Shown piece after piece: positions 1 through 11,818 of a stretch of 11,818 bases of DNA; the first letter of the stretch is position 1; each line of letters opens with the position of its first letter. The stretch is from assembly GCA_031459875.1 (NCBI GenBank), contig JAVKHQ010000056.1, positions 1-11,818 of the forward strand, read 5' to 3'. The notes beneath the pieces were generated by a model. The model searched no databases. It was not told the origin of the DNA and worked only from the letters and a program-made list of their open reading frames with translations. This DNA comes from Candidatus Fervidifonticultor sextus. GTDB taxonomy: Bacteria > Sysuimicrobiota > Sysuimicrobiia > Sysuimicrobiales > Humicultoraceae. Made by a program: the position numbers and the translations under genes.

Positions 1-298
1 ACGGACTCACGGTGCTCATGTCAATGTAGACTTTGCCGGGCCCCAGGCCGACGAGGATGCCGTCGGGGCCGTTCGTGACCGCCCGCAGCGCCGTGGTGTC
101 CGTCACCATGGTGAAGGTCACCTCGGCCGCCTCGGCCACCGCCCGCGGGGAGTCAGCCCACTGCATGCCCGCATCGATGAGCCCTTGAGCCTTGGCCCGG
201 GTGCGGTTGTACCCGATGACCGGATAGCCGGCGGCCAGGAGGCGGTGGACCATGCGGCCGCCCATGACGCCCAGCCCGACGAACCCCAGACGTGTCAT
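1..298 (-). CDS. NAD(P)-dependent beta-hydroxyacid dehydrogenase (3-hydroxyisobutyrate dehydrogenase / tartronate semialdehyde reductase family), N-terminal part, truncated by window edge
   Basis: Manual translation from ATG 298: MTRLGFVGLGVMGGRMVHRLLAAGYPVIGYNRT...GKVYIDMSTVSP. It has the GxxGLGxMG Rossmann motif, YNRT and DMST motifs. ATGA overlap with the GntR stop (295-298); upstream SD-like GAGGGA. Confidence 0.92.
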   Translation of the reverse strand, partial: MTRLGFVGLGVMGGRMVHRLLAAGYPVIGYNRTRAKAQGLIDAGMQWADSPRAVAEAAEVTFTMVTDTTALRAVTNGPDGILVGLGPGKVYIDMSTVSP

Positions 299-1053
299 CC
301 CTCACCTCGGTGGTCGGCCGGCCCGCTCCCGGCCGCGGCGGGGGCCCGGCCGGTGAGGAAGTCGTGGATTTCTCGCTCGACGCGCTGCAGGTGCTCCCGC
401 ATCCTCTGGCGGGCGCCATCCGCGTCACCTGCCGCGATGGCGTCCAGGATCGCGCGGTGTTGCAGGATCGATCGCTGCGGACTCCCGGGAATGTGGTAGA
501 TCCGCGCCAGCGCCTGCTGCAGCAGGTCGCGCACCGCATGCATCATGCGCAGGGCGACCCGGTTGCGCGTGGCGGACGCCACCGCCAGGTGGAACTGGAG
601 GTCGGCGGTAATGTAGCGGTCCTGGCTCGACAGGCCGGCCTCCATCTCGGCGATGGCCCCGGCCATCTGCTCCAGGTCCTCTGCGGTCCGCCGCTGCGCC
701 GCCAGCCCGGCGGATTCCACCTCGAGGATCTTGCGGACCTCGTAGACCTCCGGCAGGCTGGCCTCCTCCAGTTCGAGGAGGAAGGAAAGCGAGTGGCTGA
801 GGGGATTCCCGTACTCCGCCACCTCGAAGGCGCCGTTGGCCGACGGCCGGATCAGGCCGCGGGATTCCAGCATGCGCAGGGCCTCGCGCACCGACGACCG
901 CCCCACCCGGAAGGTCTGCATGAGCTCCCGTTCGGTCGGCAGCGGGTGGCCCGGCCGCAGGCCGCGCTCACTGATCAGGACCACCAGCCGCTCGGCGACC
1001 AACTCGTAAACCTTGCGGCGTTCAATGGGCTGGACCTGGCCGCTGTTGTGCAC
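295..1053 (-). CDS. GntR family transcriptional regulator, FadR subfamily (wHTH + FCD domain)
   Basis: wHTH LPTERELMQTFRVGRSSVREALRMLESRGLI; FCD motifs EVRKILE, ADLQFH, SILQHRAILDAIAAGD, MREHL. The GTG start has only a weak SD, so the exact start is uncertain. Confidence 0.95.
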   Translation of the reverse strand: MHNSGQVQPIERRKVYELVAERLVVLISERGLRPGHPLPTERELMQTFRVGRSSVREALRMLESRGLIRPSANGAFEVAEYGNPLSHSLSFLLELEEASLPEVYEVRKILEVESAGLAAQRRTAEDLEQMAGAIAEMEAGLSSQDRYITADLQFHLAVASATRNRVALRMMHAVRDLLQQALARIYHIPGSPQRSILQHRAILDAIAAGDADGARQRMREHLQRVEREIHDFLTGRAPAAAGSGPADHRGEG

Positions 1054-1069
1054 CCTGACACCACCGGGT

Positions 1070-1096
1070 CTGTCAGACGAACTGACTATCTGACAA
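1070..1096. promoter_or_regulatory. Putative tandem FadR/GntR operator upstream of the regulator (autoregulation)
   Basis: CTGTCAGACGA (1070-1080) and CTATCTGACAA (1086-1096), 16 bp apart, resemble the FadR-subfamily TNGT-N3-ACNA box. Inverted repeat TGTCAGA-N11-TCTGACA. Same architecture recurs at 11569-11595. Confidence 0.7.
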
Positions 1097-1147
1097 GATG
1101 CCTCCTTGTCTTTATCTGCCGGAGGGCAGGCCTCCTCCTGGATCGGG

Positions 1148-2491
1148 TCAAATGGCCGGCAACCTGAATCCGGACCTGGCGACCACGGCGTCCCGAGATT
1201 CGATGGCCAGCGTCCGGACGCGGTTCAGGTCCACGCCCACCAGGTGCCCGTGGCGTTTCCTGGCCTGCCCCGCGATGAAGACCGAGTCGACGTTGCTGGT
1301 GTCCATGCCCCACACCACCGCGCCGATCGGGTCGTTCACCGGCAACACGTTCACGCGATCGGTGCGCAGCATGATGATGTCCGCCTCTTTGCCCGGCGTA
1401 AGCGTACCCACCCTGCTTTCCAGCCCGTTGGCGCGGGCGCCCTCGATGGTGGCGAACTCCAGCACATCGCGGCTGGTCAGGAAGGGCGGCAGCGTCTCCT
1501 CGCCCGCCAACTTCCGGTCGAACAGCAGCGCGTGCTGCAGGGAGATGGCCGAGCGCATCTGGGTGAACATGTCGCCGGGGACGTTGGTCTCCACGTCCAC
1601 GCTCAGGCTGGGGCGCAAGCCGCGATCGAGAAACCGCTGGGTGGGAGGCATGCCGTGCCCCATCATCATTTCCACCGGACAGGCCAGCGACACCGTCCCG
1701 CCGGTGTCCACGATCATCTGGACTTCCTCGTCGTTCAGCGTGGCGCAGTGGATGTAGGTGATGTCCGGTCCCAGCAGCCCTGCCCGGCCGGCCTCTCCGA
1801 CCTTGCCGTGCTTGCCGAAGGTGCCGACGCCGACGTGGATGGTGATGTGGGCGTCCACCTCCCGGGCGAGCTGAAAGTCCGCCCTGACCCCCTCCAGGGG
1901 ATAGAACTCCGGACCGTACGGTGCCAGCCCCAGCGTCAGCAACTGGTCCTTCGAGGAGAAATACTGCCGCGCGGCTCGTCGGAACCAGTCGGGTTGCTCC
2001 GGTTTGGGGGCCTCCCACCACGGCCAGCCGTAGGCGAAGACCGCGCGGATGCCCGACTCCTCCAGGGCGTTGATGGCGGCATCGGTGTGCTCCGGCGACG
2101 CCTGGATGTGGGACCAGTCGAGGATCGTCGTGATCCCGGCGTCAATGGCGCCCAGCGCGCTGATCAGGTTGCCGGCGTAGACGTCCTCCGGGCGGTAGGC
2201 GGGCGCCAGGGTGTTCAACACGAAGGCCAGATAGCTGACCTCCCCCTCCAGCGGGATGTCGACCCCGATGTTGCGGAGGATCCCTTCCCACATGTGCCGG
2301 TGGGTGTCGATGAATCCCGGCATCACGATCGTGTTGGAGGCGTCTATCACCTCCGCGTCGGCCGCGACCAGGTTCGGCCCGACGGCGGCGATCTTGGAGC
2401 CCTCGATCAGCACGTCGGCCTGCCTGAAGTTGCCGACCGTCCGATCCAGGCTGAGCACGCACCCGCCCTTCAGCAACGTCCGTTCGGCCAT
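1148..2491 (-). CDS. Metal-dependent amidohydrolase (COG0402, MtaD/AtzA/SsnA-like), substrate unknown
   Basis: N-terminal beta-sandwich (DVLIEGSKIAAVG), PGFIDTHRH (HxH), ITIH, YIHC, SVDVE, ATIEGARANG, GTLTPGKEADI; SD AGGAGG just upstream of ATG. Confidence 0.92.
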   Translation of the reverse strand: MAERTLLKGGCVLSLDRTVGNFRQADVLIEGSKIAAVGPNLVAADAEVIDASNTIVMPGFIDTHRHMWEGILRNIGVDIPLEGEVSYLAFVLNTLAPAYRPEDVYAGNLISALGAIDAGITTILDWSHIQASPEHTDAAINALEESGIRAVFAYGWPWWEAPKPEQPDWFRRAARQYFSSKDQLLTLGLAPYGPEFYPLEGVRADFQLAREVDAHITIHVGVGTFGKHGKVGEAGRAGLLGPDITYIHCATLNDEEVQMIVDTGGTVSLACPVEMMMGHGMPPTQRFLDRGLRPSLSVDVETNVPGDMFTQMRSAISLQHALLFDRKLAGEETLPPFLTSRDVLEFATIEGARANGLESRVGTLTPGKEADIIMLRTDRVNVLPVNDPIGAVVWGMDTSNVDSVFIAGQARKRHGHLVGVDLNRVRTLAIESRDAVVARSGFRLPAI

Positions 2492-2541
2492 GGTCGCCTC
2501 CTGCTCATGGTCTCCGTTGCCGGCCGCGGTCGCCCCCGAAC

Positions 2542-3402
2542 CTAGGCCGGGCCGGCGACGTACTGCGCCCAGTCCCTCTCGAAGCGGAACGCTTCCGCCG
2601 CCGGCGGCAGCGGCGCCTGCGTCTCGATCCAGCGCACCGGCGCTCCGCTGACATTGGCGAAACTGTGGATACAGCCCACGCTGGTCCAGATCACACTGCC
2701 GGGACCCAGGCGGTACACCTGACCGTCCGCGGTGGCCTCCACTTCGCCGCTGAGGACGAAATAGGACTCCTCAAAGGTATGATCATGCGGATCGATCTTC
2801 GCACCGGGCTGGTACTGAATGATGAACAGCGACTGGTGCACCGCCCCGAACGTGCGATCCACGAGCATCTTGATGGTCACGCCGGTGACCGGATTGAAGC
2901 CTTCCATTTCCGACGGTCCTCCGGGCTGTGGGAGCCGTGATTCGTCGAAGTGCCCGAGAAACCTGTCCGCCGGGTCGTGCGGATCGGGCGGCCTGGCCGA
3001 GACGGCCACATCGTCGCCGACGAAGAACGTGTCGCGGCCGCGTCCCGCGGGGCGCGGCTGGGGCGCCTGCGACTCCAGCCAGCGCACAGGCTGTGGGCCC
3101 ACGTTGCGCCAGGCGTGCCGGACGCCCGTGCGGATCAAGCCGAAGTGGCCGGGCCCCAGCGCGTAGGCCCGGTCGCTGATCTGCACGGTAGCGTTCCCTT
3201 CCAGGATATAGAAACTCTCTTCGAAGGAGTGGAGGTGCGATCGGATCATACCGCCCGGCTCCAGGGAGCAGATGCCCGTGCCCATATGCACCGAACCCAC
3301 GCCATGATCGACGTAGGTGGCCCGCCGGAAGCCGGTCGTATGCCCTTCGTACAAATCTGGTGTGCCGGTCGTCACCTCATCGATCTTCGCCACGTAGTGC
3401 AT
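2542..3402 (-). CDS. Bicupin (two cupin domains), paralog B, function unknown
   Basis: Two cupin motif sets: HLHSFEE...HAWRN and HDHTFEE...HSFAN. Start placed at ATG 3402 (MHYVAKID) after SD-like GGGGGA, and this aligns with the N-terminus of paralog A. The ORF track starts at 3444. Confidence 0.9.
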   Translation of the reverse strand: MHYVAKIDEVTTGTPDLYEGHTTGFRRATYVDHGVGSVHMGTGICSLEPGGMIRSHLHSFEESFYILEGNATVQISDRAYALGPGHFGLIRTGVRHAWRNVGPQPVRWLESQAPQPRPAGRGRDTFFVGDDVAVSARPPDPHDPADRFLGHFDESRLPQPGGPSEMEGFNPVTGVTIKMLVDRTFGAVHQSLFIIQYQPGAKIDPHDHTFEESYFVLSGEVEATADGQVYRLGPGSVIWTSVGCIHSFANVSGAPVRWIETQAPLPPAAEAFRFERDWAQYVAGPA

Positions 3403-3449
3403 CGCACATCCCCCGCGACCGAGCAGGTCCGCCCCCGCCGCCACGCTGG

Positions 3450-4436
3450 CTACAGGTCCAGCAGGTCAGCCGGATTGCGCCGCCCCATCAGATCCAACTC
3501 CCGATCCGTGATGCCGAGGGCCCGCAACTTCCGCACGAACGTCAGGTACCCCTCCGCAGGCGCCACACACGGCGCCGCGCCCAGATCGCTGGCAATGAGA
3601 CAACGCTCGGCACCGACCGCCCGGATGGCCGCCGCCATCTGCTCGACAGATACACCGCGCCATGCCCGGAACCGCTCCACGGGGGAGTCGGGGCCGAGGA
3701 ATGCGCCAATGTAGGCGTGCTCGATATAGGCGCCCAGGCGGGCCGCCTCCCGCTGTTCCTCAATGGTCATGTTGATGGGGTCGTAGTCGGCGTGGGTGCA
3801 GACGATCTTCTCCACCCCGGCGGCGCGGGCTTCCCGAATGACGGCCAGGGCCTCCCCCGCAGAGAGGTGGCTGGTCTGCAGCACCAGGCCGTGCTCCGCG
3901 CACATGGCCAGGATCTCGCGCATGGCCGGGACGAGGCGCGTCCCGTCGAACACCTCGACGCCCGGCCGCGGGATGCCGAACCGCTCGTGGTGGTTCCGGG
4001 CGTTGATGCTGGGGAGCCACACGACCCGCCCCAGCCGCTCTGCCCCCGCCCCCCGAAAGGCCACCATGGCCTCCACGGCCGCGGCGTTGATCCCGCCCAT
4101 GGGCCAGTTGAGCACCACGCCCCCGAAGACGTGGATTCCTCCAACCTCGGCCCGGGCCTGGGCCGCGCGGGTCACGGTCTCGAAGGCGCCGCCCTTGAGG
4201 ACCACGGCGCGCATGCCCAACGCACGGGCGGTGCGCGCCGCCTCGATCCCGTCCACCGTGCGGTCGAAGGTGTCCGGCGCGGTGTGCACGTGGAAATCAA
4301 TCATTCCCTCCACTTCGCCGCGCACGTCCGTCGCGCTGCCGGCGACCTCCACGGCCGGCGGCACCCGCGGAAAGGCTCCGAAGGCATGAAGCCCGCCTGG
4401 CGGCAGGGGAAGACAGCACACCGCTTCGTCGCACAT
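3450..4436 (-). CDS. DUF6282-type amidohydrolase-fold (TIM-barrel) metalloprotein
   Basis: IDFHVHTAPD, GMRAVVLK, FGGVVLN..GGIN..AVE, VWLPS, TSHLS, CTH, SDLG and RNPA.LL motifs. Start placed at ATG 4436 behind SD-like GGGGGTGA; alternatives are 4442 and 4445. Confidence 0.8.
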   Translation of the reverse strand: MCDEAVCCLPLPPGGLHAFGAFPRVPPAVEVAGSATDVRGEVEGMIDFHVHTAPDTFDRTVDGIEAARTARALGMRAVVLKGGAFETVTRAAQARAEVGGIHVFGGVVLNWPMGGINAAAVEAMVAFRGAGAERLGRVVWLPSINARNHHERFGIPRPGVEVFDGTRLVPAMREILAMCAEHGLVLQTSHLSAGEALAVIREARAAGVEKIVCTHADYDPINMTIEEQREAARLGAYIEHAYIGAFLGPDSPVERFRAWRGVSVEQMAAAIRAVGAERCLIASDLGAAPCVAPAEGYLTFVRKLRALGITDRELDLMGRRNPADLLDL

Positions 4437-4475
4437 GCGCATCACCCCCGATAGCGCCGTCCGAGGCCCGCGAAT

Positions 4476-4955
4476 TCAGGGCGAGGCGGTCTCCCCCGAC
4501 AGGGCACGGGCACGATCCAGGATCTGCGGCGGGGCGACCGCCAGGACCTCGATCTCGACGCGCGCCTCCGGCACGACCAGGGCGGAGACCTGCACCGTGG
4601 TGCTGGCTGGCTTGTGGTCGCGCAGGTACTCCCGCTGCACCGCGTTGAGCTCGTCCTGCTCCCCGATGTGGGTGAGGAACCGCGTGATCTTCACCACATG
4701 CCCCCACGTCAGCCCCAGCGCCTCGAGAGACAGCTGGACGTTCTCAAAGGCCCGTCTGGCCTGCTCCTGCATGGACGGAGGCAGCGCATGTTCGGCCGGG
4801 ATATGGGGGTGGTGATGGTAGACGGGGGAGGCATGACAGCCCGAGATCACCACGAGCGCCGCACCCGGCGGCACCACCACGGCGGGCGCGTAGGGCATGG
4901 ACACCTTTCCGCGCAGCGGATGCGCCGGAAAGATGGGAATCCCCTGCCAGATCAC
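4476..4955 (-). CDS. Rid (RidA/YjgF/YER057c/UK114) family protein, Arg-lacking type with His-rich loop
   Basis: PYAPAV, ISG, QARRAFENV...L, VVKITRFL, PASTTVQVSAL, RVEIEVLA; strong SD AGGAGGT upstream of GTG. Confidence 0.9.
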   Translation of the reverse strand: MIWQGIPIFPAHPLRGKVSMPYAPAVVVPPGAALVVISGCHASPVYHHHPHIPAEHALPPSMQEQARRAFENVQLSLEALGLTWGHVVKITRFLTHIGEQDELNAVQREYLRDHKPASTTVQVSALVVPEARVEIEVLAVAPPQILDRARALSGETASP

Positions 4956-4976
4956 CGTGCACCTCCTCCTCGCCCC

Positions 4977-5684
4977 TTACCCTGTGCCCAGGTACGCGTC
5001 CTGCACCTGGCGGGTGCGCATGAGGTCGCCCCGGGATCCGGCCGCCACCACGGCCCCCCGCTCCATCACCACGCCCCGGTCGGCCACCCCCAACGCCCGC
5101 ACCACATTCTGCTCGACCAGCAGCACCGACACCCCGAGTCCTCTGGCCTCCCCCACGAACTCAAACACCACATCCGCCATGACCGGCGCCAGTCCCAACG
5201 ACGGCTCGTCCATCAACAGCAGCCTCGGGCGCGCCATCAACGCTCTGCCGATCGCCAGCATCTGCTGTTCCCCGCCGCTCAAACTGCCTGCCCTCTGCCC
5301 CAGCCGTTCGCCCAGCCTTGGGAACATGCCCAGCACCCGCTCCATCGACTCGCGCTGCCGCGCCCGACCCCTGCGATTGAACGCCCCCAGTTCCAGGTTC
5401 TCCTGGACGGTCAGCTCGGCGAAGACCCGCCTGCCCTCCGGTACCAGCGCGATGCCCCGCTCGCAGATCTGCTCGGGCGCCAGGCCCGTGATCTCCTCGC
5501 CGAAGAATTCCACCCTCCCCCGGCGGATGCCGACCCAGCCCGCGATGCTCTTGACCAGCGTGCTCTTGCCGACGCCGTTGGGTCCGAGGACCGCCACCAC
5601 TTCGCCGTCACCCACGTCCAGGCTGACACCTTCCAGGGCGCGCGCCTCTCCGTACCTCACCTCCAGGTCCCTCACCTTAAGCAT
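4977..5684 (-). CDS. livF: HAAT/branched-chain amino acid-type ABC transporter ATP-binding protein (LivF-like)
   Basis: Walker A GPNGVGKS, VPEGRRVF, signature LSGGEQQMLAIGRALM, Walker B LMDEPSLG, LLVEQN, AYLG. Start at ATG 5684 (MLKVRDL) overlaps the livG stop by 8 nt. The symbol denotes the family, not a proven Leu/Ile/Val substrate. Confidence 0.95.
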   Translation of the reverse strand: MLKVRDLEVRYGEARALEGVSLDVGDGEVVAVLGPNGVGKSTLVKSIAGWVGIRRGRVEFFGEEITGLAPEQICERGIALVPEGRRVFAELTVQENLELGAFNRRGRARQRESMERVLGMFPRLGERLGQRAGSLSGGEQQMLAIGRALMARPRLLLMDEPSLGLAPVMADVVFEFVGEARGLGVSVLLVEQNVVRALGVADRGVVMERGAVVAAGSRGDLMRTRQVQDAYLGTG

Positions 5685-6420
5685 CGCCGGCGTGGCCTCC
5701 CAGGTACGCGGCACGCACGCGCTCGTGCTTCAGGACCTCGCCGGGTCTGCCCTCCGCCAGCACCTTCCCCTCGTGCAGCACCACCACCCGGTCCGCCAGC
5801 GCGCTGATGGCTTTCACATTGTGCTCCACCACGAGCAGCGCGACCCCCATCGCCTGGATCCGGCGGACCGCCTCCATGACCCGCTCGATCTCCGACGGCG
5901 TCAACCCCGCCAGCGCCTCATCGGCCAGGATGATCCGCGGACCGCTCGCCAGCGCCCTCGCCAGTTCCAGCAGCCGCCGCTCCTGCAGGGTGAGGCTTTC
6001 TATCGCCTTCTCTGCCGCCGCCTGCAGGCCCAACAGCTCCAACCACTGGCCCGCCGATCTCTGGGCGGCCCGAGGGACGCCGACGTCTTGCCCGCGGCCG
6101 AACAGCGCCCCGACCGCCACGTTGTCCCGCACGTTCATCGAGCCGAACGGCCTGGGATACTGATACGTCCGGGCCAGCCCCATCTTCGCCCGCTGGTGCG
6201 GAGGAAGGTCCGTGATGTCTGCTCCCCCGAACCGGATCCGGCCCGCGTCCAGCCGGTGGTACCCCGCCGCTACGTTGATCAGGGTCGATTTTCCGGAACC
6301 GTTGGGACCGATCAACCCCAGGATCTCTCCCTCTCGGACCTCGAGCGAGACTCCCCTCAACGCAAAGACGCCGCCAAAGTGCTTCTCCACCCCCTGGAGA
6401 TGCAACAGCCCGTCAGCCAT
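5677..6420 (-). CDS. livG: HAAT-type ABC transporter ATP-binding protein (LivG-like)
   Basis: KHFGG, GLIGPNGSGKST, ARTYQ, RRLLELARALA, LADEALAGL, VEHN, AYLG; 8-nt overlap with the livM stop. Confidence 0.95.
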   Translation of the reverse strand: MADGLLHLQGVEKHFGGVFALRGVSLEVREGEILGLIGPNGSGKSTLINVAAGYHRLDAGRIRFGGADITDLPPHQRAKMGLARTYQYPRPFGSMNVRDNVAVGALFGRGQDVGVPRAAQRSAGQWLELLGLQAAAEKAIESLTLQERRLLELARALASGPRIILADEALAGLTPSEIERVMEAVRRIQAMGVALLVVEHNVKAISALADRVVVLHEGKVLAEGRPGEVLKHERVRAAYLGGHAGDA

Positions 6421-7537
6421 CGGCCACTTCCATGCGCGCGCGTCCCCGGCCCCACCGCCCGCCCCTGGGGACCCTCCTGGGCATCACCAACAGGATCACC
6501 GCGGCGGCGACCCCGATCGCCAGCGCATCCAGCAGCACGGTCCCCCGGGCCGTCGCGACCACGATGACCGCGGCCGCCACCGCCCCCGCCACCACTCCGC
6601 GTTCCTTCACCCTGTCGTAGATCCCCTCGGGCAACGTGGCGACCACCACCATCAGCAGCAGGCCCATGACCACTTCACTGACCTGACCCAGGCCCGGCCC
6701 ACTCAACCGGTCATTGATCGCGTGCACCACGCCGGCACCCAGCACCGGCCCCAGCCAGTGCCTCCGCCCGCCGAGCACGCACATCATGATGACCAGCAGT
6801 GGCACCCGCAGCGCGAACACCGCATCCGCCGTCACGTAGCGCACCTGCAGCGCGTGCAGCCCTCCGCTGAGGCCGGCCACGGCGCCGCTCAAGGCCAGGG
6901 CCGCCATCTTGTGGGCGAAGGTCGGGACGCCGAGGCCCTCCGCGACCCGCTCGTCATCGTGGATCGCCCGCAGTCCCCATCCCAGCCGGCTCCGGTACGC
7001 CCACCAGCCCACGCCGACCGCCACCAGCCCGACGAGGAACCCCGCATAGTACAGGAATCCCACATCCGACAATCCCCACGGATACTCCAGCTTGGGCAGA
7101 GGGATTCCCACGCCGCCGTCCAGGTAGCGCACGTTGTTCACCAGGCTGTGCAATGCCACCGCCACCGCCAGCGTGACCAGCGCGAAGACGGGCCCGCGGA
7201 TCTGCCGCAGACGGAAGACCACCAACCCGATGCCGCACGCGACGGCGGCACCGGCCAGCGCCCCTCCCAGAACCGCCAGGCCGTAGGGAACGCCGTGTCG
7301 ATCGATCAATACCGCCGCGCCATAGACGCCCGCCCCGTAGAAGGCCCCCTGGCCGAAGCTGAAATATCCCGCGTAGCCCGAGATCACATTCCAGCTGGTG
7401 GCCTGCGCCACCCAGAAGAAAAAGAAATACAGGAACACCAGGTAGTACGCCGGGAGGCCCAGGCTCCGTATCGCCGTCGGCACCGCCAGCAGCCCGGCGA
7501 CCACGAGCCCGATGGCCCAGAGGGCGCCCCGCCTCAT
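6413..7537 (-). CDS. livM: HAAT-type ABC transporter permease (LivM-like)
   Basis: Hydrophobic protein with SWNVISGYAGYFSFGQGAFYGAGVY, FALVTLA, GWGLRAIHDDE..AEGLGV, LGG...LGPVLGA and LPEG. True start ATG 7537 overlaps the livH stop (ATGA), rather than 8200 as in the ORF track. Confidence 0.93.
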   Translation of the reverse strand: MRRGALWAIGLVVAGLLAVPTAIRSLGLPAYYLVFLYFFFFWVAQATSWNVISGYAGYFSFGQGAFYGAGVYGAAVLIDRHGVPYGLAVLGGALAGAAVACGIGLVVFRLRQIRGPVFALVTLAVAVALHSLVNNVRYLDGGVGIPLPKLEYPWGLSDVGFLYYAGFLVGLVAVGVGWWAYRSRLGWGLRAIHDDERVAEGLGVPTFAHKMAALALSGAVAGLSGGLHALQVRYVTADAVFALRVPLLVIMMCVLGGRRHWLGPVLGAGVVHAINDRLSGPGLGQVSEVVMGLLLMVVVATLPEGIYDRVKERGVVAGAVAAAVIVVATARGTVLLDALAIGVAAAVILLVMPRRVPRGGRWGRGRARMEVADG

Positions 7538-8412
7538 CCCTCCCTCCGTCCCAGCACGGACGGCAGCAGCCCCTCGGGCCGCAGCAGCAACCCGACCAGC
7601 AGAGCGCACGCACCGACCAGCCGGGCGACCGCCGTCGCCCCCAGGACCTGGGCGACGGCTTCCCCCACCCCGATGACCATCCCGCCCAGCACCACGCCCG
7701 TTGGATTTCCGATGCCTCCCAGGATCACCGCGGCGAACAGCAGGCCGATCCACTGTTCCGCAGCGTTGGGATAGAGGGCAAAGTTCATCGCCACCAGCAC
7801 CCCGGCCACCCCGCCGGTGGCACCGCCCACCGCGGCCAGCATGAGACGCAGCCGCTCCACATCCGCCCCGCACGCCCTCGTCATCTCTTCGTCCAACACC
7901 GCCGCCCGCAACGCCTTGCCCGCGTACGTCCTCTTCAGGATGAGGCCGACGGCCACCGCCACGAGAACCGCCAGGGAGAACGAGACCACCTGCGTCACGG
8001 GGAAGGCCAGGGGGCCGGCGGTCAGCGCGCCGACGGCATACGGGTTCTGGGCGATGGGAATCCGACGATAGTCCGCCGTCCACACGAGCTTGGAGAGGCC
8101 TTCGAACACGACCAGCACGCCGAAGGTGAACACCAGGGAGCGCGCGGCGTCCAGGCGCAGGGCCCGCATCACGAGCCGCCACCCGGCGCCCACGAGGCAC
8201 CCCACGGGGGCCGCCAGGAGCAGGATCATCAGGGGATTCAACCCCCGCGTCGCCAGCTCGTAGGTCACATAGCCGAACCCGAAGATGATCGCGAAGTGCC
8301 CGAAGTCAATGGTGTCGAGGAAGCCCCAGCCCAGGGTCAACCCCAGCGCCAGCAGCGCATAGAACGCCCCGATCAGGATCCCTGAGGCCACCGCCTGAGC
8401 CAGATCTACCAT
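7534..8412 (-). CDS. livH: HAAT-type ABC transporter permease (LivH-like)
   Basis: SGILIGAFYALLALGLTL.WG....DFGH, T..GKALRA...D, FAAVILGGIGN..G...GG, RPEGL; SD-like GGGAGAGG upstream. Confidence 0.94.
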   Translation of the reverse strand: MVDLAQAVASGILIGAFYALLALGLTLGWGFLDTIDFGHFAIIFGFGYVTYELATRGLNPLMILLLAAPVGCLVGAGWRLVMRALRLDAARSLVFTFGVLVVFEGLSKLVWTADYRRIPIAQNPYAVGALTAGPLAFPVTQVVSFSLAVLVAVAVGLILKRTYAGKALRAAVLDEEMTRACGADVERLRLMLAAVGGATGGVAGVLVAMNFALYPNAAEQWIGLLFAAVILGGIGNPTGVVLGGMVIGVGEAVAQVLGATAVARLVGACALLVGLLLRPEGLLPSVLGRREG

Positions 8413-8473
8413 GGGCCCACAGCCTCTCCCGCTGCGGGTGCGCGACGTCGGATCCCCTGCCTTGCGGACAGCG

Positions 8474-8507
8474 CGGGGCCGCCGGCCGGACTCAGCCCGC
8501 GGCCCCG
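8474..8507. other. GC-rich stem-loop between SBP and permease genes (putative mRNA-stabilising element)
   Basis: CGGGGCCGC (8474-8482) pairs with GCGGCCCCG (8499-8507), extended by GGC/GCC after one mismatch. It lies 16 nt downstream of the SBP stop and has no U-tract. Confidence 0.55.
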
Positions 8508-8523
8508 GGGCCTCTGCGGCTGC

Positions 8524-9756
8524 CTATCGCAACCGCCGGTCTTCCGCTGCCAGCGACGGCGGCCAGACCGCCCACCACCGTCCGTCCTGGATCTGCATCA
8601 CCGCCTGGAGGTCATCGCCATAGTTCTGCTGGGTCGCGTCGAATTTCAAACGGCCCTGGACCGTCGGCACGGGCTTGGACAGCAGGGCATCGGCGATCCG
8701 GGCCTGATCCAGGCACCGGCACTCCTGCACGCCGAAGGTGAGCACCTGCCATGCCGACCAGGAGGCGGCGGACTGCACGTCGGGTTCGTCGTAGGCCAGG
8801 CCGGTCGCCTTGGCCCACGCCCGATAGCGGCGCACGAAGTCCCGCGCTCCGGGATTCGAGAGATAGGGCTCGTGGGGCACGAAGATGGTCACGCTTGTCG
8901 CCCGATCCGTGACCGGTAGCGCCGTCAGCATCGCCCCTGGCGACGGCCACTGGTGGAAGTGATGCCGGGGCTTCCAGCCCAGCTGGGCCAGCGCCTGGAG
9001 CAGGTTCACGCCGTCCAACGCCAATCCGGCCGCGTACAGGAGGTCCGGATCCGCCCGCCGCACCTGCTGGGCGATCGGAATCCAGTCGGTGGTGCCCAGG
9101 TCGAACTGCACGTCGAGGACCACCCGCAGCCCCTTCTGCTCGGCCACCCGCGTGGCGCCGCCGACGTTGGCCCTCCCGTATGCCAGGAACTGCGTGCCTG
9201 GAAACTTGTTCACGACGAACCCCACCGTGCGCGGCCGCTGCCCCGGGGGCAGCGACAGGTAGGCGTCGAACACCTTGGCCGGCGTCGTCATGTGCGTGTT
9301 CAATCCCACGTACCAGGTGGGGAAGTGACGCCGATAGGTGTAGGCATACGTCAGGCTGGCGGTGTGGTGCGGGAACACGTATCCGTATTTCTCTGCCACC
9401 CGCATGGTGGCCGTGATGGACGCGGTTCCGTACGGACCGATGATCAGGTCCACCTTGTCTTCCGTGATGAGCCGTTCATAGAGTGCCGCGGCCTTGTCGG
9501 GCCGCGATTCGTCATCCAGGAGCACCCACTCCAGGGGGCGCCCCAGCAATCCTCCCTTCTCGTTCACCATCTGCACGAACGCCCGTCCGGCAGCCTCGTG
9601 GACCTTGCCCTGGGCCGCGAACACCCCTGTGAGCGGCAGGGTGCCGCCCACCCGGATGGGGCTCGACTGCGCGTCGGCGCCCGTGTAGGAAACCAGGAGC
9701 AACAAGACCCCCGCAAGCCCGACGAACCGACCGACTCTTCCCCCTGTCTGCCTCAC
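8524..9756 (-). CDS. HAAT-type ABC transporter substrate-binding protein (LivJ/LivK-like periplasmic binding protein type 1)
   Basis: Sec-type signal peptide ending ADA|Q; IRVGGTLPLTG, VNEKGGLLGRPLE...DDES, LITEDKVDLIIGPYGT, TVQGRLKFD, QIQDG. Start placed at GTG 9756 behind SD-like AGGGGGTG; the ORF track gives 9765. Confidence 0.93.
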   Translation of the reverse strand: MRQTGGRVGRFVGLAGVLLLLVSYTGADAQSSPIRVGGTLPLTGVFAAQGKVHEAAGRAFVQMVNEKGGLLGRPLEWVLLDDESRPDKAAALYERLITEDKVDLIIGPYGTASITATMRVAEKYGYVFPHHTASLTYAYTYRRHFPTWYVGLNTHMTTPAKVFDAYLSLPPGQRPRTVGFVVNKFPGTQFLAYGRANVGGATRVAEQKGLRVVLDVQFDLGTTDWIPIAQQVRRADPDLLYAAGLALDGVNLLQALAQLGWKPRHHFHQWPSPGAMLTALPVTDRATSVTIFVPHEPYLSNPGARDFVRRYRAWAKATGLAYDEPDVQSAASWSAWQVLTFGVQECRCLDQARIADALLSKPVPTVQGRLKFDATQQNYGDDLQAVMQIQDGRWWAVWPPSLAAEDRRLR

Positions 9757-9825
9757 GACTCGCACCCCCTTCCAGCGTCTCCTGCGTCCGAACCCTCGCT
9801 GCAGCCTGCACCTCCCCTCTTCGTA

Positions 9826-10782
9826 TCACTCTGGGCCTGCGTCCGCGCGCGCCGCCTGCACGGCTATCGGCGAGGCCTCACTGCTCAGCAGCCGTTCCAG
9901 GTATTCCCATTCACGGGTGAACCGATACGAGTGATTTCGAGGGGGCTGCGGTGCCTGGGTCTCGAGCCACCGGACGTTCTGCCTCGACCGATTGTAGAAG
10001 GCGTGAATCGTGCCCGCCCCCGTCCAGAAGAAATCACCCGCCCGAAGCTGATACGTCTGCCCCTCCGTCCAGGCGTCGACTTCTCCCTCCAGAATCAGGT
10101 ACGCCTCCTCGAAGGGATGGTCATGTGGGTGCGCCACGCCTCCGGGCTCGTACTCCACCATGAACATGGTCATCAGGTTCGCGTCCATGCGCTGGTCCAC
10201 AAGCATCTTGATCCCGATCCCACTGTAGACGAGGAGGGCTGTCACCATGCTCGGCGACGCCGTCGGAGCTTCCACCGCGCTCCCGCGCCGGGCGGTGTCC
10301 AGGTCCATCTGGCCCTTCTCGAAGTGGAAGAAGAGTCGGCACCGGGGGTCCCGCGCGTCGACCTTCCTGACCTCCCCGGACGCGAGGGGCGCTGCCAGGA
10401 AGAACGCGTCGGCCGGCCCCCGTTCCCGCGGACGTGGCGATACCATCTCGACCCAGGCACACCGCCGCCCCTCGGGGTTGCGCCACGAGTGTGGAACACC
10501 AACCGGAATGAAGCCTCCCTCCTGCTCGCCCAGCCTCACCGTCCCGCCGTTGATCGTCAGGTCGAGGACGCCCTCCAGCACATAGACCGCTTCCTCGTAG
10601 GACTGCACGTGCGGGTCAATGCGCCCTCCACCGTCCAACTCGCACGCGGCGAACCCCATGTGCACCGACCCGGTGCTCCCGTCCACGAGCGGTTGCCTGC
10701 GAAACCCGCTGCTGTGTCCGGCGAAGCGCTCGGGGATCCTCATCTCCGTGCGATCCAATCGCGCCACACGATGTGCGCCCAC
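9826..10782 (-). CDS. Bicupin (two cupin domains), paralog A, function unknown
   Basis: Cupin motifs HVQSYEE...HSWRN and HDHPFEE...HAFYN. The first codons of the ORF-track call (GGAGGAGGA) form an SD, placing the start at GTG 10782 (MGAHRVARLD). Confidence 0.9.
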   Translation of the reverse strand: MGAHRVARLDRTEMRIPERFAGHSSGFRRQPLVDGSTGSVHMGFAACELDGGGRIDPHVQSYEEAVYVLEGVLDLTINGGTVRLGEQEGGFIPVGVPHSWRNPEGRRCAWVEMVSPRPRERGPADAFFLAAPLASGEVRKVDARDPRCRLFFHFEKGQMDLDTARRGSAVEAPTASPSMVTALLVYSGIGIKMLVDQRMDANLMTMFMVEYEPGGVAHPHDHPFEEAYLILEGEVDAWTEGQTYQLRAGDFFWTGAGTIHAFYNRSRQNVRWLETQAPQPPRNHSYRFTREWEYLERLLSSEASPIAVQAARADAGPE

Positions 10783-10832
10783 CGCCGATCCTCCTCCCAC
10801 CTGCCCGCATCATCCAGGGTCGTTGACGGGCT

Positions 10833-11534
10833 TCAGCCCAGGACCCAGCCCCCGTCCACGAAGAGCTCGACGCCGTTGACCGCCGGATTCTCCAGCAGAA
10901 ACGCGACGGCATCGACGACATCCTGCATCCGCACCAGGCGCCCGGTGGGGGTGCGCCCCCGCACCTTTTCCAGCATCGCCTCGTTGTTGGCCCAGTAGGG
11001 ACTGTCCCCCACGATCCCGGGGTGGATGGCGTTCACCCGCACCGGAGCCAGTTCGCTGACCAGGGTCCGCACGAGGCCGGAAACACCCGCGTTGACGGTT
11101 GTGACCGTGGTCGATCCCGGGTACGGCCGCTCCTTGGCGAGCCCTCCGAAGATAACGATGGCGCTCTCGGGCGTCAACCGCGATTGCAGCGCGTGGATCA
11201 CTGCCGTGTAGCCCACCAGTTTCAGGGTCACCAGGGAGAGCGCGCGCCGCACATCGTAGTCCCGCACCGTGTTCCGGTCACGGTCGATGGCCGCCAGCAC
11301 CAGACCACCAACGGGACCGAGGCTCGAGAGCCTGGCCGCCACCTCGTCGGGCCTAGTGAGATCCACCGCGACTCCCTGGACGGTGGGGCCGACCTCCCTC
11401 GCCGCAGCGGCTGTGCGGACGGGATCGCGCCCGGAGATCACCACCGGACGGCCGCGCTCCGCGTAGTAACGTGCGGTCTCTTTCCCGATCCCGGAGGTTC
11501 CGCCGATAATGACTACAGCCCCAGAGCCCTCCAT
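10833..11534 (-). CDS. SDR family oxidoreductase, atypical (no YxxxK), probably NADP(H)-dependent
   Basis: GGTSGIG, SGRD (basic residue after beta2), ELAPVRVNAIHPG, P.GR....DV..AV.FL, VDGG; SD GGAGGGG upstream of ATG. Confidence 0.93.
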   Translation of the reverse strand: MEGSGAVVIIGGTSGIGKETARYYAERGRPVVISGRDPVRTAAAAREVGPTVQGVAVDLTRPDEVAARLSSLGPVGGLVLAAIDRDRNTVRDYDVRRALSLVTLKLVGYTAVIHALQSRLTPESAIVIFGGLAKERPYPGSTTVTTVNAGVSGLVRTLVSELAPVRVNAIHPGIVGDSPYWANNEAMLEKVRGRTPTGRLVRMQDVVDAVAFLLENPAVNGVELFVDGGWVLG

Positions 11535-11568
11535 GAAACCCCTCCGAAAACCGTCAAACCAACCAAAT

Positions 11569-11595
11569 TCGTCCGACCAGCAGATTGTCTGACTA
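11569..11595. promoter_or_regulatory. Putative tandem FadR/GntR operator at the head of the operon
   Basis: TCGTCCGACCA (11569-11579) and TTGTCTGACTA (11585-11595) both fit TNGT-N3-ACNA and are 16 bp apart. They sit in an AT-richer intergenic region 35-61 nt upstream of the first gene and mirror 1070-1096. Confidence 0.75.
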
Positions 11596-11675
11596 ACAGG
11601 CGTTAGAATTAGCCGTCGGCGTCACCGATCCTGCAGCCCCGGAATCGAGGAATGGCCCGCCGCCGCGCCGCGGCG

Positions 11676-11818
11676 CTAGATCGCCTGCCCGTACTTGTCG
11701 CGCATCAGGTCGCGGATGTACTTGGTCACGTCCAGGGTCACCGACAGCGCCCGGTGCACCGTCCGCTCCACCAGATCCCCCCGCAGCAGCGGGTAGCCTT
11801 CCATCAACCGCCTGGCCT
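11676..11818 (-). CDS. C-terminal fragment of an unidentified protein (truncated by window edge)
   Basis: Open frame ...ARRLMEGYPLLRGDLVERTVHRALSVTLDVTKYIRDLMRDKYGQAI-TAG with almost all codons ending in G/C and protein-like composition; family not recognised. Confidence 0.75.
   Translation of the reverse strand, partial: ARRLMEGYPLLRGDLVERTVHRALSVTLDVTKYIRDLMRDKYGQAI

Follow-up and report, generated by a model that had tools for sequence, protein, structure and literature searches.

Two-component phenol hydroxylases of the HpaB/HpaC type are encoded in clusters with ring-cleavage dioxygenases, and such clusters serve 4-hydroxyphenylacetate and hydroxyquinol-type pathways. The meta-cleavage pathways of 3-hydroxyanthranilate and 2-aminophenol combine a cupin dioxygenase with the amidohydrolase-fold decarboxylase ACMSD and a Rid-family 2-aminomuconate deaminase. 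A third set of genes, NaaA/B/C, belongs to the degradation of 5-nitroanthranilate. PMC10306065 describes that degradation as the work of a hydrolytic aminohydrolase, then a cupin ring-cleaving dioxygenase and a lactonisation, and also mentions bicupins that hold two iron sites and cupin hydroquinone dioxygenases made up of two subunits. Here we analyse a stretch of 11,818 nucleotides from Candidatus Fervidifonticultor sextus (contig JAVKHQ010000056.1, positions 1 to 11,818; hereafter the window), which encodes an importer, a regulator and a group of enzymes that includes two bicupins, A and B. We read the window, tentatively and with less than even confidence, as most of a two-promoter regulon for the uptake and degradation of an aromatic compound, with an aromatic acid that bears hydroxy and/or amino groups as the likeliest candidate; a nitrogen-bearing aromatic substrate is possible.

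Bicupin B and its neighbours in other genomes

Bicupin B is the conserved core enzyme of the window. It carries two complete His-His-Glu-His metal sites (H56, H58, E62 and H96; H206, H208, E212 and H246), whose residues are invariant in 24 aligned rows, and this complete set would suit the cupin barrel of a ring-cleaving dioxygenase. Its relatives number 2545 at E <= 0.001, with 378 confirmed matches in a one-genome-per-species collection; the 120 listed of the 2545 are 68-92% identical to it and bear generic names ('cupin domain-containing', 'mannose-6-phosphate isomerase-like', 'quercetin dioxygenase-like'). Across the three phyla in which it was found the protein is 63-75% identical, and it is at most 78% identical to other clusters in the protein collection. 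Its best PDB sequence match is a 'glyoxylate-induced protein' (3.7e-8). A structural model with a predicted local distance difference test (pLDDT) value of 78.9 matches the folds of YxaG, OxdC, MncA, salicylate 1,2-dioxygenase and YlbA-type proteins about equally, with template-modelling (TM) scores of 0.57-0.68, the top matches being the two-metal bicupins YxaG, OxdC and MncA together with salicylate 1,2-dioxygenase (TM 0.61-0.68). Models of cupin ring-cleaving dioxygenases were not matched (gentisate_1_2, 19.4 bits against 442.1), and those of 3-hydroxyanthranilate dioxygenase gave about 19.5-19.7 bits against cut-offs of 146-220. The bicupin literature from 2017 onwards, at the level of titles and abstract starts, yielded nothing on the bicupin B family among the papers listed, and neither did the listed literature combining homoprotocatechuate and cupin.

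The neighbourhood of bicupin B was sampled in the best 80 of its 378 genome matches, with up to 10 kb fetched on each side. These loci come from Acidobacteriota (61), Chloroflexota (18, mostly Anaerolineae) and Sysuimicrobiota (one, 'Ca. Fervidifonticultor octavus', here called L001). Neighbours were counted by tblastn because greedy calls of open reading frames (ORFs) put antisense shadows over true genes in some loci, and L001 is included in the counts for DUF6282, GntR and Rid. Trees were quick trees with Shimodaira-Hasegawa-like approximate likelihood ratio (SH-aLRT) support and are used for coarse statements only.

An HpaB-type oxygenase accompanies bicupin B in 45 of the 80 loci and a flavin reductase in 39, and the genes of a pyruvate dehydrogenase-like (PDH-like) 2-oxoacid dehydrogenase set recur as well, with E1alpha and E1beta in 32 loci each, an M24 gene in 33 and E2 in 30. 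Only four loci are without HpaB, E1/M24/E2 and AH1 alike. The gap between bicupin B and HpaB has a median of 21.5 nt (44 pairs); the oxygenase scores 743 bits on TIGR02310, a 4-hydroxyphenylacetate monooxygenase model with a cut-off of 885, and the reductase is StyB/HpaC-like. Nine loci contain a LigM-like O-demethylase (vanillate/3-O-methylgallate), which passes its cut-off (631.5 bits over 580) and is co-directional with HIBADH-E1-M24-E2. Intradiol dioxygenases of the catechol/chlorocatechol type occur in four loci, all among the 18 of Chloroflexota, and in three of these the dioxygenase lies beside genes for a Peripla_BP_6 substrate-binding protein (SBP) and Liv-type ATPases, so that in this family of neighbourhoods ring cleavage and HAAT importers go together. 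Importers of the Peripla_BP_6/Liv type stand beside the module in L004, L015 and L055. In Bryobacterales loci HPPD, phenylalanine hydroxylase and a class I/II aminotransferase flank bicupin B, and a homogentisate-dioxygenase-like gene also adjoins bicupin B-HpaB. It is because bicupin B elsewhere keeps the company of HpaB with flavin reductase, LigM-like enzymes and intradiol dioxygenases that we favour aromatic or aminoaromatic catabolism over ureide breakdown.

A typical gene string in Anaerolineae reads HIBADH-E1a-E1b-M24-E2-bicB-bicA-SDR-AH1-ABC, while Acidobacteriota typically have bicB-HpaB-FlavRed, with or without E1a-E1b-M24-E2, and Terriglobia HIBADH-E1a-E1b-M24-E2-LigM. E1/E2 and HIBADH are strung together with bicupin B in at least 18 loci, and the order E1b-M24-E2 recurs across phyla. 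Loci L004 and L009 have sister bicupin B genes (branches of about 0.09 in the quick tree) and share HIBADH-E1a-E1b-M24-E2-bicB, downstream of which L004 continues with HpaB-FlavRed-SBP-intradiol dioxygenase and L009 with bicA-SDR-AH1-ABC. Since these sister loci diverge only after bicB, HpaB/flavin reductase and bicA/SDR/AH1 look like exchangeable feeder modules around a fixed bicupin B core.

The first-pass annotation of the window, made from its letters alone, had made conserved co-occurrence of its genes in other genomes a test of its reading. Such co-occurrence is seen for part of them: bicupin A and the SDR occur in 11 of the 80 loci each, HIBADH in 20, and AH1 in 15 (14 of 18 in Chloroflexota, none of 61 in Acidobacteriota), but DUF6282 and GntR are found in only two loci each and Rid in one, and the HAAT set of the window recurs only in L001. 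In that locus all 13 genes are present in unchanged order, at 92-98% identity, and the E1alpha gene of a 2-oxoacid dehydrogenase comes next. Judged by these sequence comparisons, the 13 genes are not one conserved unit; the kernel consists of bicupin B, bicupin A with SDR and AH1 (11-15 loci, from Chloroflexota and the lineage of the window), HIBADH and the PDH-like E1alpha-E1beta-M24-E2 set, and the remaining genes, those for Rid, DUF6282, the HAAT importer and GntR, are in essence particular to one lineage. Bicupins A and B are adjacent or split only by the SDR in eight of the ten Chloroflexota loci that have both, and in the window the importer stands between them. The ABC system of Chloroflexota loci is of another, CUT2-like type, in which Peripla_BP_4 goes with a fused double ATPase, and their regulator is another one as well (HTH-cupin).

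An M24 metallopeptidase-like gene lies between E1beta and E2 of the PDH-like set in both Acidobacteriota and Chloroflexota (L003-L004, L009, L012, L024-L025, L030, L032, L037, L040, L048, L059, L066, L070, L073, L075 and others). Its product is nearest to prolidases (5.3e-23) and DddP, far under their cut-offs, and we know of no role for an M24 gene inside a 2-oxoacid dehydrogenase operon.

Fusions involving bicupins were also observed. In one protein of 535 aa (P0241), HpaB domains are linked to a part that resembles bicupin B (68% identity across 74% of the query); its source is one contig of 3.6 kb, and a frameshift is possible. In an Atlas cluster of 87 members, mostly Planctomycetota, an HpcH/HpaI aldolase domain is fused to a bicupin (TM 0.79). 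Atlas look-ups otherwise returned only unnamed cupin or amidohydrolase clusters.

Gene content, enzyme motifs and operator-like sites

The window has a G+C content of 66-71% throughout. Pfam and NCBIfam profile searches of its proteins identify 13 genes, all on the minus strand and read from 11534 down to position 2 (Table 1), in the order SDR-like, bicupin A, SBP, permease 1, permease 2, LivG-like, LivF-like, Rid, DUF6282, bicupin B, AH1, GntR and HIBADH fragment. With revised starts the junctions comprise overlaps of -4, -8, -8 and -4 nt and gaps of 21, 30, 47, 50, 50, 60, 94 and 111 nt. In these respects our results bear out the first-pass annotation, which had described (our own findings follow each item in brackets) 13 co-oriented genes with overlaps or short junctions (all on the minus strand, -8 to +111 nt), twin bicupins (each with two Cupin_2 stretches, and 41% identical to one another), two amidohydrolase-fold enzymes (AH1, an Amidohydro_1/PRK08204 protein, and DUF6282, PF19799 with a TIM-barrel model) and a catabolic cluster of importer and enzymes under a FadR-subfamily regulator (a five-part HAAT set; GntR and FCD domains). 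Three starts were moved upstream of the first ATG that has a good ribosome-binding site because homologues have matching N-terminal extensions; the genes for bicupin A, Rid and DUF6282 thus probably begin at GTG 10782, GTG 4955 and GTG 4445, respectively. Positions 11676-11818 hold the 3' end of a further gene on the same strand, of which the last 47 codons lie in the window. Its counterpart in L001 (562-1707) encodes 382 aa and matches no Pfam family at E <= 0.001.

Table 1. Features of the window, with coordinates, strand and supporting matches (operator-like sites in minus-strand reading).
Feature	Coordinates	Strand	Matches and remarks
SDR-like protein, 233 aa	10833..11534	-	Pfam adh_short_C2 1.2e-26; NCBIfam PRK07041 149.9 bits, under 257 cut-off
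Bicupin A, 318 aa from GTG 10782 (alternative starts 10800, 10743)	9826..10782	-	two Cupin_2 stretches
SBP of HAAT-family ABC importer, 413 aa, hydrophobic N-terminal signal-like segment	8524..9765	-	Peripla_BP_6 8.5e-49
Permease 1 (LivH/UrtB-like), 292 aa	7534..8412	-	BPD_transp_2 1.5e-27; UrtB 92.1 bits (cut-off 250.3), LivH 52.6 bits
Permease 2 (LivM/UrtC-like), 374 aa	6413..7537	-	BPD_transp_2 7.1e-31; ATG 7537 behind GGAGGGAGGG
ABC ATPase, LivG-like, 247 aa	5677..6420	-	ABC_tran + BCA_ABC_TP_C; LivG 166.6 bits, cut-off 362
ABC ATPase, LivF-like, 235 aa	4977..5684	-	ABC_tran 1.1e-29; LivF 227.9 bits, cut-off 441
Rid-family protein, YHxHPH loop, 159 aa from GTG 4955; conserved core from 4898	4476..4955	-	Ribonuc_L-PSP 1.3e-19
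DUF6282 TIM-barrel metal hydrolase, 331 aa from GTG 4445; conserved core from ATG 4304	3450..4445	-	PF19799 7.8e-59
Bicupin B, 286 aa, conserved core enzyme	2542..3402	-	two Cupin_2 stretches
AH1, Amidohydro_1 enzyme, 447 aa	1148..2491	-	NCBIfam PRK08204 ('hypothetical protein') 554.9 bits, cut-off 391
GntR-family regulator, FadR (FCD) subfamily, 252 aa	295..1053	-	GntR 3.1e-16 + FCD 6.6e-33
Beta-hydroxyacid (HIBADH-family) dehydrogenase, first 99 aa, cut by window edge	2..298	-	NAD_binding_2 8.6e-28
Two operator-like sites, TAGTCAGACAA + TGGTCGGACGA, 16 nt apart, ~35-60 nt upstream of SDR start	11567..11595	.	
Operator-like block GTCAGATAGTCAGTTCGTCTGACAGA, AH1-GntR gap	1069..1094	.	one TNGTCNGACNA match (1070-1080) + two degenerate repeats

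All 13 proteins stay below the NCBIfam equivalog cut-offs, and the sole model passed is PRK08204, which is itself named 'hypothetical protein'. With no enzyme at a curated equivalog cut-off, the pathway is uncharacterised, and since PDB sequence matches are also remote or absent, the earlier statement that no characterised pathway has this gene set stands. A literature search found no paper naming either DUF6282 or PRK08204, and the main text of the Sysuimicrobiota phylum paper (PMC11604079) makes no mention of aromatic, cupin, amidohydrolase or branched-chain. At the nucleotide level, Rfam gave no match at gathering thresholds over the whole window, and a promoter and terminator scan gave one promoter-like and five terminator-like sites, not above shuffles. 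All five of the latter lie on the non-coding strand, with none predicted on the coding strand within the cluster. A generic repeat search displayed only families in coding sequence and reported no shared intergenic repeat; the paralogy of the bicupins is visible in it as D1, D7 and D17.

Several of the enzymes depart from the motifs of their families. Classical SDR proteins are marked by TGxxxGxG and a catalytic Ser...Tyr-x-x-x-Lys. The SDR-like protein of the window keeps the glycine-rich NAD(P)-binding motif (GGTSGIG, residues 11-17), which is present with variation (GGTxxxG or GATxxLG) in 12 of 12 rows, and lacks the Ser-Tyr-Lys triad: aligned to PDB 5t2u, it has Gly, Val and Asn at these positions, as do all 12 rows, in which a motif FGGLAK..PYPGSTT(V/I)TTVN is likewise conserved. 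Its partner, bicupin A, has an N-terminal site of the form H-x-Q...E...H and a C-terminal one of the form H-x-H...E...H. We rejected HxQ as a trait of the bicupin A family, as it occurs in the window only among the ten rows aligned (L001 and L075 left out); the nine Chloroflexota orthologues, 44-52% identical to the window protein, all have HxH at the N-terminal site. Bicupin A forms a clade of its own (12 rows, 100% SH-aLRT, quick tree) and finds its best PDB sequence match in the quercetinase YxaG (2.5e-11), over the C-terminal domain only. The genes for bicupin A and the SDR-like protein lie side by side in each of the 11 loci where they occur, in one of two orders, and their stop and start overlap by 8 nt in eight of ten Chloroflexota loci. 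A complex prediction for bicupin A with the SDR-like protein gave no answer (score 0.00, mark 0.32) and speaks neither way.

Bicupin A evolves much faster than bicupin B, the identity between the window and Chloroflexota being 44-52% for A and 63-75% for B. Path lengths to the nearest Chloroflexota row in the quick trees are about 3.2 and 0.6, respectively.

In AH1 the metal ligands (HRH, the His residues of HVGVG and IHC, and the Asp of SVDVET) align with those of 4f0r, 3hpa and 7ww2 and are kept in 22 of 22 rows. The HxxE glutamate is missing: AH1 reads HVGV where 3hpa has HLAE and 4f0r HIHE, and all 22 rows have HVGVG or HAGVG. The best PDB match is 4f0r, a methylthioadenosine/S-adenosylhomocysteine (MTA/SAH) deaminase (3.2e-27), followed by triazine hydrolases, AtzA, and AtzB/8-oxoguanine deaminase, and every named equivalog model stays below its cut-off. 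A second AH1 paralogue, 67-72% identical to that of the window, occurs at about 16-20 kb in seven Anaerolineae loci (L003, L009, L012, L018, L068, L073 and L075), in one open frame with a preceding BPD_transp_2 permease (ORFs of 825-850 aa); these may be fusions or two genes without an intervening stop.

DUF6282 exceeds its Pfam cut-off by far (199.1 bits against 26.8) and is invariant in 27 rows at D3, H5, H7, K37, H146, H171, E195 and D240, a pattern of the type HxH...H...H...D. It has no PDB sequence match at E <= 0.1. Its model (pLDDT 95.4) is nearest in fold to phosphotriesterase-like lactonases, phosphotriesterase (PTE), E. coli PHP and LigI-like hydrolases (TM 0.60-0.66), and some members of the family have a precomputed PF04909 match. 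Several homologues, though not the window's own extension, start with a hydrophobic 'MC...SRRxFL' segment that resembles a twin-arginine signal, and because of these N-termini part of the family may work outside the cytoplasm. A full-length homologue (38% identical) lies directly upstream of bicupin B-HpaB in Bryobacterales (L062, 9121-9909); among the 80 loci this is the one case, beyond the lineage of the window, in which DUF6282 accompanies the bicupin.

RidA proteins bind carboxylates through an arginine, Arg105 in E. coli numbering. The Rid protein of the window has Ser at this position ('HKPAS' as opposed to 'HKPAR' in YabJ), and Arg is found in none of 16 relatives at that column; instead, the residues H28, H30, P31 and H32 of the YHxHPH loop are invariant in all 16, which are single-domain proteins picked by hand from 150 listed. 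Its score on TIGR00004 is 59.3 bits (cut-off 106.25), and PDB 6izh, a '2-aminomuconate deaminase', is among its matches (1.4e-6). Many of the nearest YHxHPH relatives (P0242, P0244, P0245, P0247 and others) have lengths of 370-460 aa, and the 140-aa query aligns to each in three separate stretches. They appear to hold three fused Rid domains, an arrangement that would resemble the homotrimer usual for Rid proteins.

The first-pass annotation had counted five enzymes that deviate from canonical motifs. The deviations are borne out for the SDR, Rid, AH1 and bicupin A; they do not extend to bicupin B, with its two intact sites, or to DUF6282, in which HxH, H146, H171 and D240 are invariant.

The HAAT importer is complete, its five parts being contiguous and three of them having overlapping stop and start codons (the start of permease 2 overlaps the stop of permease 1 by 4 nt), and no Liv or Urt equivalog cut-off is reached. 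The SBP matches PDB 4evq_A best (1.7e-10), over its N-terminal third only. At the left end of the window the HIBADH start overlaps the GntR stop by 4 nt. The best model for the HIBADH fragment is 2-hydroxy-3-oxopropionate reductase (83.7 bits, cut-off 397), which is also the best for its orthologue in L004 (183.9 bits against 340.75). In L001 the gene is full length (295 aa, NAD_binding_2 and NAD_binding_11 domains) and the E1alpha gene follows directly.

Regulators of the FadR subfamily of GntR proteins recognise a palindromic operator, with the consensus TNGTNNNACNA, near the promoters they control. The regulator of the window has the domains of this subfamily, an N-terminal GntR winged helix (PF00392, residues 16-70) and a C-terminal, all-helical FCD effector domain (PF07729, residues 102-223), and among NCBIfam models it comes closest to NanR (149.4 bits against a cut-off of 260) and LldR (129.4 bits against 311). 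Operator-like sites were found by reading the intergenic gaps, not by the generic repeat search. With at most one mismatch, the half-palindrome TNGTCNGACNA, of GntR/FadR type, has three matches in the window (11585-11595, 11569-11579 and 1070-1080). This count is not above chance over the whole window (3 against a shuffle mean of 3.77), and the operator evidence is therefore positional: all three matches fall in the two regulatory gaps 5' of the SDR gene, where the gap extends to 11675, and 5' of the GntR gene, which together make up 235 of 11818 nt. By our own arithmetic, the chance that three independent sites would all do so is about 8e-6. The sites lie in two 26-nt blocks (11567-11592 and 1069-1094) that are unchanged in L001, with the remaining gap sequence 81-88% identical; the distal site upstream of the SDR gene has one change there. 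The shared operator motifs of the first-pass annotation are supported as operator-like sites through their location in both promoter gaps and their conservation against L001, not through their number. Operator-like sites in both promoter gaps suggest that a single putative repressor governs two transcription units, one of 11 genes from SDR to AH1 and the other from GntR-HIBADH on. The idea of a riboswitch in the 141-nt leader was dropped, there being no Rfam match.

In a Chloroflexia locus (L069, 12350-12700) the order GntR-HIBADH-E1a-E1b-E2 is the same as at the left end of the window, with a GntR protein that is 37% identical. Before that regulator gene are a clear TTGACA-17-TATAAT promoter and a different palindrome, TGGTCATCATACCA, and no GTCNGAC site is present anywhere in the locus.

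Proposed route and its alternatives

Gene content and conservation are what the data establish, and each reaction step of the following scheme is one that we infer from them. The FCD-GntR protein would bind the TNGTCNGACNA sites before the SDR gene and before its own gene, and would be released by the substrate or an intermediate. The compound, brought into the cell by the HAAT importer, would be converted to the substrate of bicupin B by a feeder module made up of AH1 and the pair of bicupin A and triad-less SDR, whose position after bicupin B is held in relatives by an HpaB-type monooxygenase with flavin reductase. Bicupin B, the invariant core with two 3-His-1-Glu sites, would then carry out a probable O2-dependent C-C cleavage of a ring or enol. 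The YHxHPH Rid and the lactonase-like DUF6282 may be lineage-specific helpers, the former for imine/enamine release of nitrogen and the latter for the opening of a lactone or ester. Small products would pass to the HIBADH-like dehydrogenase and to the PDH-like E1alpha-E1beta-M24-E2 set, predicted to be encoded just left of position 1.

A more specific form of this scheme, which we regard as quite unlikely but worth stating, makes bicupin A, the triad-less SDR and the glutamate-less AH1 a new, flavin-independent feeder that does the job of HpaB and flavin reductase. It would prepare an imported, plausibly aminoaromatic, compound for bicupin B, for example by hydrolysis of an amino group to a hydroxyl, with the YHxHPH Rid as a metal-binding, imine-handling helper. 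If this were true, several new enzyme activities would be revealed at once, among them a candidate for the long-missing deaminases of the aminophenol type. In a preprint on paracetamol degradation (10.1101/2022.05.05.490616), aminophenol deaminases are described as uncharacterised, with Rid proteins as candidates.

A number of observations weigh against the aromatic reading. None of the enzymes has a transferable activity, and we infer both the substrate and the reactions. Bicupin B may not be a ring-cleaver, since a classical intradiol dioxygenase co-occurs with it in four Chloroflexota loci, and its fold similarity (TM 0.57-0.68) cannot separate a dioxygenase from a decarboxylase, aminohydrolase or isomerase. 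Among the 13 genes of the window, profile searches found neither HpaB nor a flavin reductase, and neither an intradiol dioxygenase nor an O-demethylase. The neighbourhood counts are phylogenetically non-independent: 42 of the 45 HpaB loci are in Acidobacteriota and AH1 is in Chloroflexota, and because each is nearly confined to its phylum the pattern of alternative feeders is confounded with phylum and rests mainly on three Chloroflexota loci with HpaB. The sample itself, the best 80 of 378 matches, consists entirely of contigs from metagenome-assembled genomes, some with short flanks, and gene calling in them followed the crude rule of taking the longest ORF, antisense shadows included. Furthermore, AH1 has its closest solved relatives among enzymes that act on N-heterocycles, the models nearest to HIBADH and to the permeases are those of tartronate semialdehyde reductase and of urea transporters, respectively, and the PDH-like set could be housekeeping.

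Some of these points lead to the alternative that stands best among those weighed, although we consider it unlikely, namely the breakdown of a nitrogen compound, non-aromatic or heterocyclic, that the cell imports, such as a ureide, a nucleobase-like heterocycle or a modified amino acid. AH1 and DUF6282 would hydrolyse C-N bonds, the bicupins would resemble ureidoglycine aminohydrolase, Rid would remove imines and HIBADH would reduce tartronate semialdehyde. The solved relatives of AH1 (MTA/SAH deaminase, 8-oxoguanine deaminase/AtzB, AtzA and TrzN) are consistent with this, as are the YlbA-type structures among the fold matches of bicupin B, the best matches of the HIBADH fragment and its full-length orthologue to 2-hydroxy-3-oxopropionate reductase, those of the permeases to UrtB/UrtC, and the very presence of a Rid protein. 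Both bicupins also match the (S)-ureidoglycine aminohydrolase models TIGR03214/PRK11171 at E values of 4e-9 to 1e-7, but these matches are weak: bicupin B scores at best 36.1 bits (cut-off 445) and bicupin A 32.8 (cut-off 200), overall 25-36 bits against 200-445, and the reductase scores, 184 against 341, are likewise far under the curated cut-offs. In all 22 rows AH1 is without the HxxE glutamate that its deaminase relatives show, the RidA arginine is missing from Rid, and neither the window nor the annotated clusters of the 80 loci show an allantoinase, allantoate amidohydrolase, glyoxylate carboligase or urease. The conserved partners that accompany bicupin B in other genomes belong to aromatic catabolism. 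The ureide or N-heterocycle route that the first-pass annotation had derived from amidohydrolases, Rid and bicupins is thus not upheld in that form, the folds nearest to DUF6282 (lactonase, PTE and LigI-like) and the ureidoglycine scores telling against it together with those partners.

The window may also represent no single pathway at all, its genes being a lineage-specific juxtaposition of the bicupin/AH1/SDR kernel with an unrelated importer and unrelated Rid and DUF6282, co-oriented as a result of a compact genome. This is improbable in our view. It would account for the rarity of Rid (1 of 80 loci), DUF6282 (2) and GntR (2), for the restriction of this HAAT set to L001, for an importer inserted between bicupins that stand together in eight of ten Chloroflexota loci with both, for the other ABC type (Peripla_BP_4) and the HTH-cupin regulator of Chloroflexota, and for a whole-window operator count not above chance. 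What it leaves aside is the same operator-like motif in both promoter gaps, conserved against L001, with no intrinsic terminator predicted on the coding strand within the cluster. The 38% identical DUF6282 homologue directly upstream of bicupin B in the unrelated Bryobacterales, and the recurrence of Peripla_BP_6/Liv-type importers at the module in L004, L015 and L055, likewise tell against it.

No more probable is an amino-acid or peptide regulon built around tyrosine-type catabolism, in which the HAAT system imports amino acids, the M24 protein is a peptidase, E1/E2 decarboxylate an aromatic or branched 2-oxo acid, HIBADH belongs to the lower pathway, and bicupin B acts on a hydroxyphenylacetate-type (homoprotocatechuate-like) intermediate. 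Points in its favour are the family of the importer, the similarity of M24 to prolidases (5.3e-23), the stringing of E1alpha/E1beta/E2 and HIBADH with bicupin B in at least 18 loci, the HPPD, phenylalanine hydroxylase, aminotransferase and homogentisate-dioxygenase-like genes that adjoin bicupin B-HpaB in Bryobacterales, and an HpaB closest to 4-hydroxyphenylacetate 3-monooxygenase. However, neither HpaB nor an aminotransferase is in the window, the best models for E1/E2 are those of pyruvate dehydrogenase and not branched-chain enzymes, the SBP is only remotely similar to Leu/Ile/Val-binding proteins, and AH1, bicupin A, the SDR, Rid and DUF6282 would have no role. A sugar-acid or keto-acid route, with the bicupins as KduI-like isomerases, the SDR as a KduD-like reductase and an aldolase elsewhere giving pyruvate for the PDH-like set and a semialdehyde for HIBADH, is very unlikely indeed, for although bicupin and SDR are adjacent, Chloroflexota loci have a CUT2-like ABC system with Peripla_BP_4, an Atlas cluster has the HpcH/HpaI aldolase-bicupin fusion and HIBADH is nearest to tartronate semialdehyde reductase, Pfam gives no KduI family match, the catalytic triad is missing from the SDR, neither the window nor the annotated clusters show a sugar-acid dehydratase, kinase or aldolase, and the HpaB/aromatic context is strong.

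Comparison with described systems

Catabolic operons with an importer and a repressor are ordinary in themselves. As a substrate-inducible catabolic operon the window is a known kind of system, here built from enzyme families without a described activity: bicupin B, its paralogue bicupin A, the triad-less SDR-like protein, the PRK08204-type AH1, DUF6282 and the YHxHPH Rid. The comparative frame, with a fixed bicupin B core, swappable feeder modules and a PDH-like companion with an inserted M24 gene, is directly testable. With the substrate known, thousands of genes now called only 'cupin domain-containing' would gain an annotation, in Acidobacteriota of soils, in Anaerolineae and in Sysuimicrobiota of hot springs, and the work could reveal a new way to open or prepare aromatic rings in lineages with few cultured members.

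Among bicupins with known activities, the quercetin 2,3-dioxygenase YxaG and the oxalate decarboxylase OxdC of B. subtilis share with bicupin B the fold and a His-His-Glu-His set in each barrel (fold E about 1e-17, TM 0.57-0.65). In contrast, identity over the fold alignments is 13-19%, bicupin B is about 50-90 residues shorter, and nothing links the window to flavonols or oxalate. The ureide pathway, with AllE/YlbA and tartronate semialdehyde reductase, likewise has a bicupin fold (1sef, 1sfn, 1rc6 and 1sq4; TM 0.64-0.67) and the window a HIBADH-family reductase nearby, but the proteins stay below the equivalog models, further ureide genes are absent and the neighbours found elsewhere belong to aromatic catabolism. 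On the regulatory side, the window resembles systems under FadR-subfamily GntR repressors in the winged helix-turn-helix and FCD domains of its regulator and in three putative sites that fit the consensus and lie in promoter gaps; the regulator is, however, no equivalog of NanR, LldR, PdhR or GlcC.

The clusters of the HpaB/HpaC type are approached through the relatives of bicupin B, which directly precedes an HpaB-like oxygenase in 45 of 80 loci, usually with a flavin reductase, and is followed by an intradiol dioxygenase and a HAAT importer in three Chloroflexota loci. The window itself has bicupin A, the SDR-like protein and AH1 in place of HpaB and reductase, the HpaB of related loci scores 743 bits against 885, and the usual lower-pathway genes are not seen. 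With the 3-hydroxyanthranilate and 2-aminophenol pathways the window shares the combination of a cupin, an amidohydrolase-fold enzyme and a Rid protein. It differs from them in that it has no set of aldehyde dehydrogenase, decarboxylase, hydratase or aldolase, its Rid belongs to the separate YHxHPH subfamily and models of 3-hydroxyanthranilate dioxygenase give about 20 bits.

The 5-nitroanthranilate pathway of Bradyrhizobium sp. JS329 (PMC10306065) uses as its 5-nitrosalicylate 1,2-dioxygenase a monocupin, unlike the two bicupins with 3-His-1-Glu sites of the window, and has no counterpart of the window's importer, Rid, SDR-like protein and PDH-like set; AH1 is likened to its aminohydrolase by role, not by sequence. 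The logic of the two is nevertheless the same, with hydrolysis of an amino group, ring cleavage by a cupin and a lactone in that pathway, and AH1, the cupins and the lactonase-like DUF6282 as their possible counterparts in the window.

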